A DNA stretch of 64,000 nt from Escherichia phage slur07. A program made the translations under genes and the position numbers. The notes under the pieces were generated by a model. That model did no database searches. It was not told the origin of the DNA and worked only from the letters and a program-made list of their open reading frames with translations. Of the stretch, positions 2-44,507 are shown in pieces (position 1 is the first letter of the stretch; every line of letters starts with the position of its first letter). The stretch is from the sequence record NC_028780.1. One strand, written 5' to 3'.

Positions 2-256
2 ATAAAAGACCATGTTTTAGAAGTTAATGAATTCCTGAGTATGCCTCCGCGTCCTGACATTGACGAGGATTTTATTGATGGGGTTGAATATCGTCCTGGA
101 CGTTTAGAAATCACAGATGGAAATCTTTGGCTTGGATTTACAGTTTGTAAACCTAACGAGAAGTTCAAAGACCCGTCACTTCAATGTAGGATGGCAATTA
201 TCAACAGTCGTCGTTTACCAGGAAAGGCTTCTAAAGCAGTAATTAAAACTCAATGA
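2..256 (+). CDS. hypothetical protein, probably 5'-truncated by window edge
   Basis: Frame is open from position 2 to stop at 256 (track ORF 41..256); no recognisable motif. Confidence 0.3.
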   Translation: MKDHVLEVNEFLSMPPRPDIDEDFIDGVEYRPGRLEITDGNLWLGFTVCKPNEKFKDPSLQCRMAIINSRRLPGKASKAVIKTQ

Positions 257-26048: not shown

Positions 26049-27733
26049 AGAATTTTAAACTAAATCGAGTTAGGTATCAAAATATAATGTCAGTAGGTGG
26101 AAATCCTATTGACATTCAATTAGATAAGGTTCAAAAAACTCTTATTACTGGACGAAATGGCGGTGGTAAGTCTACTATGCTAGAAGCCATCACATTTGGG
26201 CTTTTTGGCAAGCCATTTCGTGATGTAAAGAAAGGTCAATTAATAAACAGCACAAATAAGAAAGAACTTTTAGTTGAACTGTGGATGGAATATGATGAGA
26301 AAAAGTACTATATCAAAAGAGGACAAAAACCGAACGTTTTCGAAATCACCGTTAACGGTACACGTCTTAATGAATCTGCCAGCAGTAAAGATTTCCAAGC
26401 AGAATTTGAACAGCTTATCGGAATGTCATATGCCAGTTTCAAGCAGATTGTTGTCCTTGGTACAGCAGGGTATACCCCTTTCATGGGTTTGTCGACCCCT
26501 GCACGAAGAAAGCTTGTGGAAGACCTGCTTGAGGTAGGAACATTAGCTGAAATGGATAAGCTTAATAAAGCACTAATACGTGAATTAAATTCACAAAACC
26601 AAGTGCTTGATGTTAAAAAAGATAGTATTATCCAACAAATTAAAATATATAATGATAACGTTGAACGCCAGAAAAAATTAACGGGTGACAACCTTACTCG
26701 TCTGCAAAATATGTACGATGATTTGGCAAAAGAAGCTAGAACGCTAAAATCGGAAATAGAAGAAGCTAATGAAAGATTAGTTAATATTGTTTTGGATGAA
26801 GACCCGACTGATGCATTTAATAAAATCGGTCAAGAAGCAGTTTTAATTAAATCAAAAATTGACTCATATAATAAAGTCATTAATATGTATCACGAAGGTG
26901 GATTATGTCCAACCTGTTTGTCGCAATTAAGTTCCGGTGATAAAGTTGTTTCTAAAATTAAAGATAAAGTTTCTGAATGCACGCATTCGTTTGAACAGCT
27001 TTCAACACATCGTGATAATTTAAAAGTTCTTGTTGATGAATACCGAGATAATATTAAAACCCAACAGTCGTTGGCAAATGATATTCGCAATAAAAAGCAA
27101 TCTCTAATCACGACGGTAGATAAAGCTAAAAAAGTTAAAGCGGCTATAGAAAAAGCATCTTCTGAGTTTATTGACCATGCTGATGAAATAGCACTGCTTC
27201 AAGAAGAACTTGATAAAATTGTTAAGACAAAAACTAATTTAGTAATGGAAAAATACCACCGAGGAATTTTGACTGATATGCTCAAAGATTCTGGTATTAA
27301 AGGTGCTATTATTAAAAAGTACATTCCATTATTTAATAAGCAGATTAACCATTATCTTAAAATAATGGAAGCGGATTATGTGTTTACATTAGATGAAGAA
27401 TTTAATGAGACAATTAAATCCCGTGGTCGTGAAGATTTTAGTTATGCTTCATTCAGTCAAGGTGAAAAAGCACGAATTGATATTGCTCTTTTATTTACTT
27501 GGCGTGATATTGCTGAAAAAGTTTCAGGTGTTAAAATAAGTTGTTTATTTCTTGATGAAGTGTATGACGGTGCATTTGATGCTGAAGGTATTAAAAATGT
27601 AGCTAAAATTTTAGATGGTTTGAAGGATACCAACTTCTTCATAATTTCGCATAAAGACCATGACCCACAAGAATATGGTCAGCATATTCAGATGGAAAAA
27701 GTTGGTAGATTTAGTTTAGCTAAGATTAGCTAA
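26045..27733 (+). CDS. 46: recombination ATPase subunit gp46 (Rad50/SbcC-like)
   Basis: 562 aa; Walker A GRNGGGKST, central coiled coil with CPTC zinc hook, C-terminal LFLDEVYDG. Confidence 0.9.
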   Translation: MKNFKLNRVRYQNIMSVGGNPIDIQLDKVQKTLITGRNGGGKSTMLEAITFGLFGKPFRDVKKGQLINSTNKKELLVELWMEYDEKKYYIKRGQKPNVFEITVNGTRLNESASSKDFQAEFEQLIGMSYASFKQIVVLGTAGYTPFMGLSTPARRKLVEDLLEVGTLAEMDKLNKALIRELNSQNQVLDVKKDSIIQQIKIYNDNVERQKKLTGDNLTRLQNMYDDLAKEARTLKSEIEEANERLVNIVLDEDPTDAFNKIGQEAVLIKSKIDSYNKVINMYHEGGLCPTCLSQLSSGDKVVSKIKDKVSECTHSFEQLSTHRDNLKVLVDEYRDNIKTQQSLANDIRNKKQSLITTVDKAKKVKAAIEKASSEFIDHADEIALLQEELDKIVKTKTNLVMEKYHRGILTDMLKDSGIKGAIIKKYIPLFNKQINHYLKIMEADYVFTLDEEFNETIKSRGREDFSYASFSQGEKARIDIALLFTWRDIAEKVSGVKISCLFLDEVYDGAFDAEGIKNVAKILDGLKDTNFFIISHKDHDPQEYGQHIQMEKVGRFSLAKIS

Positions 27734-28442
27734 GTTTATATTTACAGTTATCATTATGCCACCTTGATAAATTTCCGAAAGTGGTAACTTTACCGCAATG
27801 GACGCAAGTACCAGTCTTTTCAGTTTTCTTGCGTCCATTTGGATTTTTCTTGCAGAAATTTCTATGCGCTGCGATAACGCATTTCTTGCCTATCATTCCG
27901 CAGAATTCGCAGGATGTTTCTTCAAGAACGATTGCTTTAAGCCCGTTTGAGATATTATTTCTGTGTTCTTTAGACATTGGTGGTCTAACTTTAGGATTGG
28001 GGTGATTTGGGCAGTTATCAAAATGCCAACGATTCATATTCCCGCTTAATCCAGACTTACCGCAATGAGGACAAGTTAGTCTTGCTTTATTAGCTACTGC
28101 ATCAGACATTTTCTTTCGTGTCTCCTGGGAGAATTCTTTATTCTTTTCTATTTCCCAGAGTTTACGACGAATCCAACCGAAAGTTTTATTGTTGCGTTTA
28201 GCGTATTTTGTGGAAACTGTCATCATGTTAGCAGCATAGACTAATTTTGGTTCAGAAGGATAAATTTTTACTAAAAGTTGATGAGCTACATAGTGCTCTT
28301 CTGGTGTTAAATCTACTAAGTTTGAGGCATCATCGCTGCCATTTAAACAGCGTGGTATAATGTGATGAGATTCAGTATAGCAATCAAGTTTTCGAGATTT
28401 AGCATTAGAGATTAACTTTTCATAAATTAGTTTATAATTCAT
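27726..28442 (-). mobile_element. free-standing HNH homing endonuclease-like gene (Mob-type), antisense
   Basis: 238 aa minus-strand ORF with SD; HNH motif ESHHIIPR...N...H; three repeated Cys zinc-finger units (CPHCGK...WHFDNC, CEFCG...C, CVHCGK...WHNDNC); convergent with 46. Confidence 0.75.
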
Positions 28443-28493
28443 AACATATCCTTTTGATACAGCGAGTGATAAACATATTTATACGGAGGAACT

Positions 28494-28685
28494 GTGGCAG
28501 AATATTCAACTGGACAGCATCTATTAACTATTCCTGAAATAAAACGATATATTCTGAGAAATAATTTTTCTAATGAAGAGCATATAGTTACTGAATCTAT
28601 GCTTAGGAATGCATTTAAATCAGAATATACAAAAATAATGTCCAATAGAAATGAAGCTTGGACTGTTACTGATTATTATGACTAA
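28494..28685 (+). CDS. hypothetical protein (45.2 position)
   Basis: 63 aa; GTG start with SD ggagga. Confidence 0.4.
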   Translation: MAEYSTGQHLLTIPEIKRYILRNNFSNEEHIVTESMLRNAFKSEYTKIMSNRNEAWTVTDYYD

Positions 28686-28694
28686 AGGTGTATT

Positions 28695-29084
28695 ATGACT
28701 AAAATTACTGTGAATTATACTGTTGACGTAAAAGATATTCAGCCAAAACACGTGCGTTCTGAATCAAATCCACAAAACCAAAATAAAATTCGTCGAGCAT
28801 GGGTTTTGTCTCTTTCTGATAACGCAATGGAAGTTATTCAGAACAAAATTAAATCTGCACCTGCTCGTCATGCGTATTATGAAGCTATCGATCGTGAAGT
28901 AAGTAATAAATGGATTGAACTAATGCGCAAACATACTACAGAATCCCTAAACGCCGGTGCTAAATTTATTATGACTTCATGTGGTGAACGCCTTGAAGAT
29001 GATTATTGTGGTAATGCAGATGAACGTCTAATTGTTGCTGCTCAAATTGTTGCGGAAACAATTGCGGCTGATTTTAATCGTTAA
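28695..29084 (+). CDS. rpbA: RNA polymerase-binding protein RpbA
   Basis: 129 aa (T4 RpbA length); position immediately upstream of gene 45. Confidence 0.7.
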
Positions 29085-44039: not shown

Positions 44040-44245
44040 AATTTAATTTTTATGCATGGCAAAAAGCCGGGAGACCGGCTAGTCGAGCATTTGGTTCTGA
44101 TGGATATAATATTAGAGCCCATTGGAAATTTAATGCTCCAGACGATTATTCTCCGGTAATTATTAACGGCGATGTTGTTATATTAACTAAAATTGGATAT
44201 TTTACCGTTCCGCGAGAATTTATTATAAATAATCATGTAATTTAA
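44036..44245 (+). CDS. hypothetical protein
   Basis: 69 aa; ATGA-coupled. Confidence 0.4.
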   Translation: MKFNFYAWQKAGRPASRAFGSDGYNIRAHWKFNAPDDYSPVIINGDVVILTKIGYFTVPREFIINNHVI

Positions 44246-44261
44246 ATAAAAGGAGAATTAC

Positions 44262-44507
44262 ATGGCTAGTACTCGCGGTTATGTTAATATCAAAACATTT
44301 GAGCAGAAATTAGATGGAAATAAGAAAATTGAAGGAAAGGAAATTTCCGTAGCTTTCCCTCTTTATTCTGACGTTCACAAAATTTCTGGCGCTCATTACC
44401 AGACATTCCCTTCAGAAAAAGCAGCATATTCTACAGTATATGAAGAAAATCAACGTACTGAATGGATTGCTGCAAATGAAGATTTGTGGAAAGTAACTGG
44501 TGAATAA
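44262..44507 (+). CDS. soc: small outer capsid protein Soc
   Basis: 81 aa; sequence recognised as T4 Soc (MASTRGYVNIKTFEQKLDGNKKIEGKEISVAFPLYSDVHKISGAHYQTF...). Confidence 0.8.
   Translation: MASTRGYVNIKTFEQKLDGNKKIEGKEISVAFPLYSDVHKISGAHYQTFPSEKAAYSTVYEENQRTEWIAANEDLWKVTGE

Follow-up and report, generated by a model that had tools for sequence, protein, structure and literature searches.

The minus-strand open reading frame (ORF) beside gene 46 of Escherichia phage slur07 (NC_028780.1; the whole stretch of 64,000 nucleotides that was analysed is referred to as the window) encodes a free-standing HNH homing endonuclease of the Mob class known from T4. We consider it very probable (roughly 80%), judging from the sequence, that it is a functional homing endonuclease gene of this class. 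This reading builds on the observed architecture and family of the protein, its sporadic distribution, a mobile cassette with definable boundaries, purifying selection and the conservation of a promoter motif.

An endonuclease gene convergent with gene 46

The coordinates that the earlier note had assigned to this ORF were exact, and its start codon is ATG (Table 1). The gene is convergent with gene 46 and, since the latter ends at 27733, overlaps its 3' end by 8 nt, in agreement with the same note. The location proposed there, between genes 46 and rpbA, was correct as regards gene 46, but the direct neighbour on the other side is gene 45.2, and rpbA lies one gene further. As that note had also stated, T4 has no endonuclease at this position and contains only a 55-bp spacer; its gene 45.2 begins with ATG-GAA, and homology with T4 picks up again at 28500 in the alignment. 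The window copy carries one private substitution (G>A at 27733), which changes P237 of the Mob protein to L and the stop codon of gene 46 from TAG to TAA.

Among the 45 ORFs of at least 150 aa in the 64-kb window, this is the only one on the minus strand. The earlier note had counted it as one of two minus-strand genes; the second could not be confirmed. The Mob-like tblastn matches at 44092-44435, a candidate for such a gene or for a Mob remnant, were weak and non-collinear, the plus strand of this region is fully coding, and the matches were dismissed as noise.

The protein matched PHROG 655 ("homing endonuclease") with E=7.5e-69, and 2300 homologues were found at E<=1e-5. In tblastn searches against T4 it matched MobB (44% identity over 110 aa, 1e-26), MobE (42.5% over 115 aa, 8e-25) and MobC (37% over 134 aa, 1e-19), and it contains the N-terminal pattern of the Mob class, MNY...E-x-HHI-x-P...N...LT..EH..H. 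The fold of the model matched T4 MobB (E=2e-11) and MobC (E=2e-9) in BFVD; searches of solved structures gave no informative match. The class proposed earlier, a free-standing homing endonuclease of the Mob/Seg type, can thus be narrowed to Mob by both sequence (PHROG 655, T4 tblastn) and fold (BFVD).

The HNH core that had been claimed for the protein is present (E24-S-H26-H27-I-I-P-R...N41...H50...H54), and residues E24, H26, H27, P30, G35, N41, H50, H54 and W90 are invariant in an alignment of 34 homologues. In the AlphaFold2 model this domain consists of strands 24-27 and 42-45 and a helix, 47-60 (pLDDT 94-96). Alignment and model together contain the hallmarks of the HNH superfamily: strand 1 ends in a His general base, an Asn plays a structural role and the next helix bears a metal-binding His/Asn. 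The Pfam HNH profile PF01844 scored 16.9 bits, below its curated cutoff of 21.4, and the sole NCBIfam match was to the IscB HNH region (23 bits versus a threshold of 175); general HNH profiles cover the Mob HNH subclass poorly. Three paralogues (P0115, P0116 and P0119) do have a precomputed PF01844 match.

The protein as a whole has a "beads on a string" architecture: the HNH domain is followed by a NUMOD3-like helix, in the place where the paralogues have full NUMOD3 repeats, and by three I-TevIII-type CCHC fingers with a predicted DNA-binding function. A modular C-terminal DNA-binding region of this kind, here one helix and three fingers, is characteristic of the Mob class. The claim of three zinc-finger repeats holds for the CX2C...HX3C units, but the W-H-x-D-N-C sequence attributed to each of them occurs in fingers 1 and 3 only, finger 2 having A-H-R-N-F-C. 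Finger 1 is predicted by the AlphaFold2 model to be beta-beta-alpha (strands E121-123 and E130-132, helix H133-143). Finger 2 is limited, in the 34-sequence alignment, to the orthologue group of the gene 46 locus; its counterpart in the T4 I-TevIII remnant is the first finger, and the alignment of the two extends into the "NPN" linker that follows. The four ligands of finger 3 are invariant in all 34 sequences, and this finger shares 58% identity with that of T4 nrdB.1, which encodes the C-terminal part of MobE; overall, identity to the I-TevIII and MobE fingers ranges from 36 to 58%.

Table 1. Features of the endonuclease locus and its surroundings (positions in the window)
Feature	Position	Strand	Basis or remark
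Mob-class HNH homing endonuclease gene, 238 aa, ATG start	27726..28442	-	ORF list, PHROG 655, dN/dS
HNH (beta-beta-alpha-metal) nuclease domain, N-terminal, ~aa 1-95	28158..28442	-	alignment, AlphaFold2 model
NUMOD3-like linker helix, ~aa 100-118 (SQETRKKMSDA)	28089..28145	-	sub-threshold Pfam NUMOD3 match, aa 103-115
Zinc finger 1, C124-X2-C127-X12-H140-X3-C144	28011..28073	-	motif, alignment, model
Zinc finger 2, C178-X2-C181-X11-H193-X3-C197	27852..27911	-	motif, alignment
Zinc finger 3, C213-X2-C216-X12-H229-X3-C233	27744..27806	-	motif, alignment
Convergent 8-nt overlap, stop regions of gene 46 and endonuclease gene (TTAGCTAA)	27726..27733	.	
Putative T4 late-promoter core, TATAAATA	28476..28483	-	motif; function inferred
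Shine-Dalgarno-like AAGGA, 6 nt upstream of ATG	28449..28453	-	read from sequence
Inferred mobile cassette, ~960 bp (gene-46 tail, endonuclease gene, promoter and leader, 45.2 GTG start and extra Ala codon)	27540..28499	.	T4 alignment, sliding identity, segment matrices
Carrier-specific 3' tail of gene 46, 194 nt, gp46 codons 499-562 (Walker B, D-loop, H-loop, C-terminus)	27540..27733	+	
Gene 45.2; RBS and start codon (GTG-GCA) come from the cassette	28494..28685	+	
rpbA	28695..29084		one gene beyond 45.2

Distribution of the gene and its linkage to the gene 46 tail

In the phage collection, 58 records carried the gene and 519 did not, with a clean gap in identity between the two groups. Carriers make up about 10% of Tequatrovirus records, and the endonuclease was present at one of 36 diverse IMG/VR loci. 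The earlier note had regarded the gene as mobile, a view that presence in all relatives would have contradicted; these counts show that it is far from universal. It stands free between the conserved genes 46 and 45.2 and is missing from close relatives, as is typical of Mob-class genes.

The dN/dS ratio among carriers is 0.01-0.12 (with dS up to 0.14) and the ORF is intact in all eight copies examined; the endonuclease is therefore under purifying selection. These values, together with the PHROG 655 match, the 2300 homologues and the status of the gene as the sole long minus-strand ORF, ruled out a chance antisense frame.

At least four lineages or genera have orthologues with this position and orientation, and convergence with gene 46 was found in all lineages examined. 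The identities of these orthologues to the window protein (63, 64, 44 and 42%) are close to those of the accompanying gp46 (65, 69, 45 and 45%, respectively). Phage F2 departs from this pattern: it is a Tequatrovirus whose gp46 is 82% identical to that of the window, yet its endonuclease allele is only 57% identical and lies nearer to the L023 allele (dN of 0.29 versus 0.36), which indicates transfer between lineages.

Comparison of the 46-rpbA junction in related phages, which had been suggested in the earlier note, defined the insertion as a cassette larger than the gene itself (Table 1). Within the gene 46 tail the identity to non-carriers falls to about 80% (66-85%), compared with 97-100% in the flanks, and 21 differences between carriers and non-carriers are fixed, with clusters at 27542-27564 and 27618-27640. 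As a result, gp46 of the carriers ends in GRFSLAKIS, as opposed to GRFTVMV in T4. The linkage of this tail to the endonuclease gene is nearly complete: all 58 carriers have it at >=97% identity, the next best record reaches 87%, the numbers of records with the tail (58) and with the gene (57-58) agree, and the carrier tail is absent from every empty-site record in the collection. Inside the cassette the carriers resemble one another at 94-100%, whereas their identity to non-carriers is about 80%. Outside it, carriers and non-carriers are interspersed, and the nearest relatives of the window on both flanks are non-carriers (99.0-99.2%); the genomic backgrounds in which the cassette sits are otherwise unrelated.

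The same arrangement was observed in F2, which represents an independent replicate of the cassette-plus-tail pattern. Its left boundary, at nt ~1490-1497 of gene 46, matches that of the window type (27540, i.e. nt 1496 of gene 46). L014 and L015, relatives of F2 with an empty site, differ from it in the last ~200 nt of gene 46 but are otherwise 96-100% identical. The sequence data support the view that the diverged, tightly linked tail represents the kind of trace that a target or a co-conversion tract usually leaves, and the tail of gene 46 in empty-site phages is probably the location of the target site. The gp46 block adjoining the shared left boundary is nearly invariant across genera and lends itself to crossovers with or without cleavage at that place.

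At the Walker-B codons both carrier lineages differ from their own empty-site relatives. These codons were rejected as a diagnostic resistant site, since CLFLDEV(Y/F)D is also encoded by non-carriers from other genera, which blurs the association, and we name no specific target. The Walker-B region is nevertheless retained as one of two candidate regions. A search for the donor lineage of the tail found at best 77% identity over the last 194 nt among the sampled sequences, and nothing above 83% for 27470-27725 in the phage collection.

Expression, predicted homing and alternative explanations

The late-promoter motif TATAAATA lies 34 nt upstream of the ATG. Comparison of four diverged alleles (window/RB32, MHG19, F2 and L023) shows it to be conserved, 41-53 nt upstream of the start codon, and all four also retain the AAGGA. 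The 64 kb of the window hold one copy of the motif on the minus strand and three in total, compared with 10.9 expected. A further leader element, GCTGTATCAAA, is conserved among the alleles. The idea that it is an operator with similarity to the homing site, a situation known from I-TevI, was rejected, as it has no match at <=2 mismatches in the gene 46 tail or spacer of T4. An RNA hairpin that would mask the ribosome-binding site, like those known from mobE, segB and I-TevI, was likewise discarded, as the leaders of the four alleles fold no better than shuffled sequences (z from -1.1 to 0.0). An intrinsic terminator was looked for between gene 46 and the endonuclease gene and none was found; the TTAGCTAA repeat forms a weak hairpin only (z=-1.5).

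The cassette replaces a spacer with MotA-box promoter-like sequence. In the window type the ORF contains a middle-promoter motif at 27931, and F2 has one beside 45.2. A compensating middle promoter was rejected, because the motif is missing from MHG19, L023, EC-F1 and Squirrel and is therefore not conserved.

For the timing of expression, the nuclease activity, the position of the target and homing itself, our best explanation follows the mechanism of related enzymes. The endonuclease gene would have its own late promoter and be read in the direction opposite to local transcription, and the enzyme would consequently be made only late in infection. During co-infection with a relative that has an empty 46/45.2 junction, its recognition site would lie within the final ~200 bp of the gene 46 of that relative, or at the junction, and the enzyme might either nick this site, as reported for MobE, or cut both strands as an I-TevIII-like dimer. 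Recombination-dependent repair templated on the carrier genome would then copy in the endonuclease gene together with the diverged, presumably cleavage-resistant gene 46 tail of the carrier.

Given the high mosaicism of T-even genomes, ordinary recombination could also place a discrete cassette in varied backgrounds. The gene might be an old resident that is no longer mobile and has been inherited vertically and by ordinary recombination, with many losses, its tail being merely a hypervariable linked segment. The empty-site Tequatroviruses alone show two gene 46 tail haplotypes ~80% apart, which means that the segment is hypervariable even without the gene; recombination, which would be rare within 194 nt at 80% identity, could keep the linkage passively, and the divergence of the orthologues follows that of their hosts. 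We nonetheless judge this explanation quite improbable, since an inactive passenger is hard to square with invariant catalytic residues and zinc ligands and with so low a dN/dS, the F2 allele points to transfer between lineages and the carrier tail occurs in no empty-site record. Strong purifying selection also fits an enzyme that has been domesticated or acts mainly as a weapon of competition: by cleaving gene 46 in co-infecting relatives it would shut out their genomes or markers, and it would be kept for this benefit to the carrier phage, not for its own spread. Such an enzyme would be biochemically identical to a homing endonuclease and only the object of selection would differ; homing and domestication cannot be separated by bioinformatics alone (PMC10448857). 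The roughly parallel divergence of Mob and gp46, in co-located and co-oriented orthologues of at least four lineages, suggests long co-residence rather than a short cycle of invasion and decay. However, a beneficial gene should be commoner than the observed frequencies in Tequatrovirus records and at IMG/VR loci, and a cassette with its tail is the footprint that homing predicts; domestication is in our opinion unlikely.

The least plausible of the alternatives, to which we attach very little weight, is a regulatory role with an incidental nuclease: late antisense RNA running from TATAAATA through the 3' end of gene 46 would lower gp46, or the protein would act as a DNA-binding repressor. The convergent overlap, the conservation of the promoter motif across alleles, the lack of a terminator between the two genes and the precedent of I-TevI, which doubles as an autorepressor (PMC2988022), are consistent with such a role. 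On the other hand, about 90% of the relatives do without the gene, selection acts on the protein sequence, catalytic residues included, the folding of the leader is not significant and its conserved element is unmatched in the empty site.

Within the preferred interpretation as a homing endonuclease, a more specific proposal can be put forward tentatively, its four parts taken jointly: the gene might represent a distinct, old Mob sub-lineage. In several Straboviridae genera, its members may have become specialists for the 3' end of gene 46, the Rad50-like gene. They may always be convergent, overlapping the gene 46 stop and possessing their own late promoter, a late restriction based on orientation that would replace the hairpins and terminators of mobE, segB and I-TevI. 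The hypervariability of the last ~65 codons of gp46 (from Walker B to the C-terminus) could result from repeated invasion and escape; in Tequatrovirus, at least three alleles of this tail, ~80% identical, coexist in genomes that are 98% identical elsewhere. Finally, the element would attack the very gene encoding the gp46/47 nuclease, which processes homing breaks.

Local gene conversion and marker exclusion in T-even co-infections are the work of homing endonuclease genes, which in this way shape the circulating alleles of essential genes. Here, a Mob-type element brings along an alternative catalytic tail of gp46, the phage Rad50 homologue, at a gene end that is unusually variable among T4-type phages. 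If active, the enzyme would be a second tractable member of the Mob class, MobE having resisted cloning and in vitro assay, and would offer a natural three-finger DNA-binding array for work on specificity. It would also make it possible to examine whether antisense placement behind a late promoter generally tames a toxic nuclease. In therapy cocktails of Tequatroviruses, biased inheritance of the 46-45 region is predicted when carriers and non-carriers are mixed.

Relation to known endonucleases

The gene was already known. RB32ORF054w, annotated in RB32 since 2006, and its counterpart RB51ORF057 bear the label [quoted passage not shown]. This is the same gene, with 99% amino acid identity and a shared position, orientation and overlap with gene 46, and the annotated putative homing endonucleases of RB32, RB33 and other phages are 99-100% identical to the window protein. 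Petrov et al. (2010, PMC2993671) counted the RB32 and RB51 copies among the "mob-like HNH" genes. The label "similar to mobB" is true of the HNH domain only, as MobB has no zinc fingers. In the literature on the gene at this locus and its orthologues we found no report of cleavage or preferential inheritance. The gene is thus a previously catalogued, ordinary though tidy example of its class and, with the gene annotated and the class well known, its discovery is incremental.

T4 MobE is a free-standing HNH endonuclease encoded between nrdA and nrdB, which nicks nrdB of T2 (PMC2790892). The nick is made at nt 122-126 of this neighbouring gene and flanking polymorphisms are co-converted (PMC2790892). 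The likeness to our protein extends over the HNH domain (42.5%), the NUMOD3-like linker and the terminal CX2CX12HX3C finger (58% identical to finger 3), although MobE has one finger and the endonuclease of the gene 46 locus three. Both genes stand free beside an essential gene whose allele in the host differs at polymorphic sites; in the case of MobE, the target lies within this adjacent gene, ~100-250 bp from the insertion, where the host allele is polymorphic (PMC2790892). The two differ in their expression. mobE points the same way as its neighbours, lacks a promoter and relies on transcripts from upstream, and an internal terminator limits it (PMC2790892), whereas the gene at the 46 locus is antisense, has its own late-promoter motif and lacks a detectable terminator. 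The co-orientation with neighbours seen in T4 mobA, mobB, mobC and mobE is not shared by our gene. In two T4 regions all annotated features (90 and 24, respectively) are on one strand, and co-orientation is a habit of the T4 mob examples, not a defining property of the class.

In I-TevIII of phage RB3, fingers of the CX2CX12-13HX3C type are zinc-binding, and DNA binding requires them (PMC1865063). The endonuclease described here shares this domain logic and finger motif, and its fingers 2-3 with the "NPN" linker are 36% identical to the two fingers of the T4 I-TevIII remnant. I-TevIII has two fingers instead of three; it cuts as a dimer and leaves 2-nt 3' overhangs. Moreover, I-TevIII is encoded inside the nrdB group I intron, while the gene at the 46 locus is intergenic and on the opposite strand, and neither a group I intron nor any other Rfam family was matched anywhere in the window.

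T4 SegF, SegG and other free-standing endonucleases of GIY-YIG type belong to a catalytic family unrelated to HNH. They too are encoded by intergenic selfish genes, and they cut in an adjacent conserved gene with co-conversion of its flanks (PMC2988022). The resemblance to the gene at the 46 locus would therefore be one of biology, and by analogy with these systems we predict for it the same "intronless homing" and marker exclusion.

The Mob ORF and its distribution

We regard the 238-aa minus-strand gene between genes 46 and 45.2 (the Mob ORF) as a predicted functional free-standing homing endonuclease of the T4 Mob class, a reading to which, judging from its sequence, we assign a probability of roughly 0.8. 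The ORF reported in the earlier note was found, with an ATG start and the HNH core described there. It is convergent with gene 46, which ends at 27733, and the proposed overlap amounts to 8 nt. The window belongs to a Tequatrovirus (T4-type) genome, and its plus-strand genes here run in the order 47, 46.2, 46.1, 46, 45.2, rpbA, 45, 44, 62; the placement between 46 and rpbA therefore holds on the gene 46 side, the downstream neighbour being 45.2 and not rpbA. Similarly, three CX2C...HX3C units are present, of which only fingers 1 and 3 carry the W-H-x-D-N-C described. The gene had been counted as one of two on the minus strand, but no second one was found in the window, where it is the only one of 45 ORFs of at least 150 aa in this orientation. 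Tblastn detected no paralogue elsewhere in the window (1-64000), and the T4 counterpart of the region contains mobA (a remnant), mobB and mobC, which indicates that slur07 has none of these three but does have the gene-46-locus endonuclease.

Features of the Mob ORF, its surroundings and its homologues (window coordinates)
Feature	Position	Strand	Description
Mob ORF	28442 down to 27726	-	238 aa, ATG start
HNH core	Mob ORF N-terminal part		E24-S-H-H-I-I-P-R, then N41, H50, H54
NUMOD3-like short helix	Mob ORF, after HNH core
Zinc fingers 1-3	Mob ORF residues 124-144, 178-197, 213-233		CX2C-X11-12-H-X3-C
Tail cluster 1	27542-27564		Walker B: S-C-L-F-L-D-E-V-Y in carriers vs (S/N)-T-L-I-L-D-E-V-F in non-carriers
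Tail cluster 2	27618-27640		K-D-T-N-F-F in carriers vs K-N-T-N-V-F in non-carriers; just before H-loop
TATAAATA, sole minus-strand copy	28483-28476	-	34 nt upstream of Mob ATG, then AAGGA
TATAAATA, other two copies	3149, 44224	+
Homologue, Yersinia phage MHG19			Mob 63%, gp46 65% identical
Homologue, IMG/VR locus L023			Mob 64%, gp46 69% identical
Homologue, Enterobacter phage EC-F1 (Pseudotevenvirus)			Mob 44%, gp46 45% identical
Homologue, Klebsiella phage Squirrel_ER27			Mob 42%, gp46 45% identical

T4 has only a 55-bp spacer at this position, which bears out the statement of the earlier note that it encodes no endonuclease there. The gene, whose presence in all relatives had been named as evidence against mobility, is not universal. 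Querying the phage collection with 27380-27725 yielded 58 records (carriers) at 97% identity or more and, after a gap, 519 at 87% or less (non-carriers), with GenBank/RefSeq duplicates in both sets; the endonuclease DNA was recovered at ≥95% identity from 57 records and the protein from 58. Carriers thus make up about one tenth of Tequatrovirus records. All eight carrier ORFs compared are intact, and their pairwise dN/dS values of 0.01-0.12 (dS up to 0.14) show the gene to be under purifying selection. One G>A change at 27733, private to the window among these eight, replaces P237 of Mob by L and the TAG stop of gene 46 by TAA; with it, the 8-nt overlap becomes perfectly palindromic (TTAGCTAA).

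Full-length homologues convergent with gene 46 and overlapping its end occur in four more phages (Table), and just one of 36 diverse IMG/VR loci containing gene 46 has the gene, which indicates that the association with this site is old and its occupancy sporadic everywhere sampled. The Tequatrovirus F2 carries, in the same place and orientation, an allele only 57% identical in protein and closest to that of L023, although its gp46 is 82% identical to that of the window. This mismatch breaks the parallel with host divergence and speaks for a transfer from one lineage to another.

The gene 47-45 region is also a hotspot for other endonuclease genes, none of the following being present in the window: a MobD-like gene between 46.1 and 46 in phages G28 (L046:596-1450) and F2 (L004:4889-5708), with an unannotated gap of equal size there in RB51 (L045:600-1465); a homing endonuclease gene between rpbA and 45 in Salmonella phage F13076 (L047:4502-5389); and an HNH-motif protein just upstream of gene 46 in EC-F1 (L005:4886-5416).

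The linked gene 46 tail

Comparison with five empty-site relatives showed 97-100% identity over 5.7 kb, except in the last part of gene 46, where it falls to 66-85%; the carrier RB32 is still 98-100% identical to the window there. The carrier-specific tract starts at 27540 (gene 46 nt 1496, gp46 codons 499-500), right where the Walker-B motif lies, and is unbroken in all eight carriers examined. On the right, 97-99% identity returns at once at codon 2-3 of 45.2, whose new ribosome-binding site and GTG start come from the cassette. The gp46 C-terminus reads GRFSLAKIS* in the carrier type vs GRFTVMV* in T4. Segment by segment, carriers form one tight group over the tail and the Mob ORF; in both flanks they are interspersed with non-carriers, which are the nearest neighbours of the window. 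The putative mobile unit is, on this evidence, larger than the Mob ORF.

The same pattern is seen in F2. Two empty-site relatives (L014, L015) match it at 58-85% identity in the final ~200 nt of gene 46 and at 96-100% over the rest of the region. Differences become dense from nt ~1490-1497 onwards, which is the boundary of the window type. The tails of F2 and the window are unlike (63%). The footprint is therefore reproducible. The shared boundary does not speak for homing alone: the gp46 block directly upstream of the tail, FSQGEKARIDIALLFTWRDIA, is almost invariant across genera, so that crossovers would tend to resolve at this natural site whether or not an enzyme cuts nearby.

By analogy with MobE, the candidate target most probably lies within the gene 46 tail or at the junction itself. 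Carriers show fixed differences from both empty-site haplotypes at 21 of 201 tail positions, grouped in two clusters (Table); since the carrier-type Walker-B residues also occur in non-carriers of other genera, these differences do not single out a specific site. The nick that MobE makes in nrdB lies at nt 122-126, and polymorphisms there are believed to protect the genome that carries mobE (PMC2790892). The two empty-site haplotypes (27515-27733; L007-L009 vs L010-L011) are only ~80% identical in a region otherwise ~98% identical and, counting the carrier and F2 tails, the last ~65 gp46 codons exist as at least four or five deep alleles, which may be the legacy of past endonuclease invasions and losses.

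Predicted transcription signals

The Mob ORF is preceded by TATAAATA, which we take from established knowledge of T4 transcription to be the late-promoter core. The window contains three copies vs 10.9 expected from shuffles, a depletion in this early-gene region. Four diverged alleles retain the motif 41-53 nt upstream of the ATG and also share a leader element. This element, TTTATC...GCTGTATCAAA..AAGGA (28443-28475, minus strand), is conserved in MHG19, F2 and L023 though the proteins are just 57-64% identical between alleles; it does not fold into a significant RNA structure, and the empty site contains nothing that matches it. Neither a sigma-70-type promoter serving the Mob ORF nor an intrinsic terminator between it and gene 46 was found. 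A G+C-rich hairpin of 7 bp (AAGCCTC-TTAAT/TTATT-GAGGCTT), without a T-run, has the convergent stop codons of F2 and L023 within its loop or next to it; in the window type its place is taken by a tandem TTAGCTAAG repeat, which forms only a weak hairpin (z=-1.5).

The cassette takes away a good MotA-box middle-promoter motif (TTATGCTTTA, 11 nt, TATAAT) that is present in the T4 spacer (L001). A similar motif lies inside the Mob ORF (27931-27958, plus strand), and in F2 (L004) one is located just upstream of 45.2, in a back-to-back arrangement with the late promoter; none was found in MHG19, L023, EC-F1 or Squirrel_ER27.

Relationship to known endonucleases

The gene is already annotated and catalogued, and its class is well understood. 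It is RB32ORF054w of the 2006 RB32 record (99% identical; 'putative site-specific intron-like DNA endonuclease, similar to mobB'), RB51ORF057 in RB51, and 'homing endonuclease' in many later records; a 2010 survey of T4-related genomes counted two mob-like HNH genes in RB32 (PMC2993671). A literature search found no dedicated study of it. What our analysis adds is the cassette with its linked gp46 tail, seen again in a second allele; the conservation of the late-promoter motif, and the antisense layout; the presence of three fingers of the I-TevIII type; purifying selection; and persistence at one site across genera.

The observation of the earlier note is real, and its interpretation as a putative Mob endonuclease is supported by an end-to-end match to PHROG 655 ('homing endonuclease', E=7.5e-69) and by 37-44% HNH-domain identity to T4 MobB (44%), MobE (42.5%) and MobC (37%). 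Only the nuclease domain justifies the label 'similar to mobB'. General HNH profiles score the protein under their curated cutoffs. At E<=1e-5, 2300 homologues are present in a large protein database. An alignment of 34 sequences shows no variation at E24, H26, H27, N41, H50 and H54, nor at any of the four ligands of the last finger. Only the gene-46-locus group has fingers 1 and 2, in whose place paralogues have NUMOD3 repeats. The AlphaFold2 model, confident per domain (mean pLDDT 88.7), comprises a beta-beta-alpha HNH core and three beta-beta-alpha fingers with helices between; its low pTM (0.51) is expected of a flexible string of modules. It matched MobB and MobC among predicted viral structures; comparison with solved structures was uninformative.

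Finger 3 shares 58% identity with the MobE finger, and the pair of fingers in the T4 I-TevIII remnant can be aligned with fingers 2-3. I-TevIII has the same spacing (CX2CX12-13HX3C), and its fingers bind one zinc apiece and are needed for DNA binding (PMC1865063). In the T4 RefSeq, MobE is 141 aa long (L044:5717-6417; NC_000866 139716-140416) and its C-terminal finger, CPHCGKKVNKGNALRWHYDKC, lies in another frame annotated as the separate gene nrdB.1; the split reflects a real frameshift or else an artefact of the sequence or its annotation.

In the two T4 regions examined all annotated features, including mobA, mobB, mobC, mobE, segA and segF, lie on one strand, which makes the antisense placement of the Mob ORF unusual for its class. 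One reasonable reading, which we only infer, is that this placement would shield the nuclease gene from early and middle read-through and confine its expression to late transcription. For mobE and others the same restriction is provided by hairpins and terminators (PMC2790892, PMC2988022), whereas for the Mob ORF it would be provided by antisense placement.
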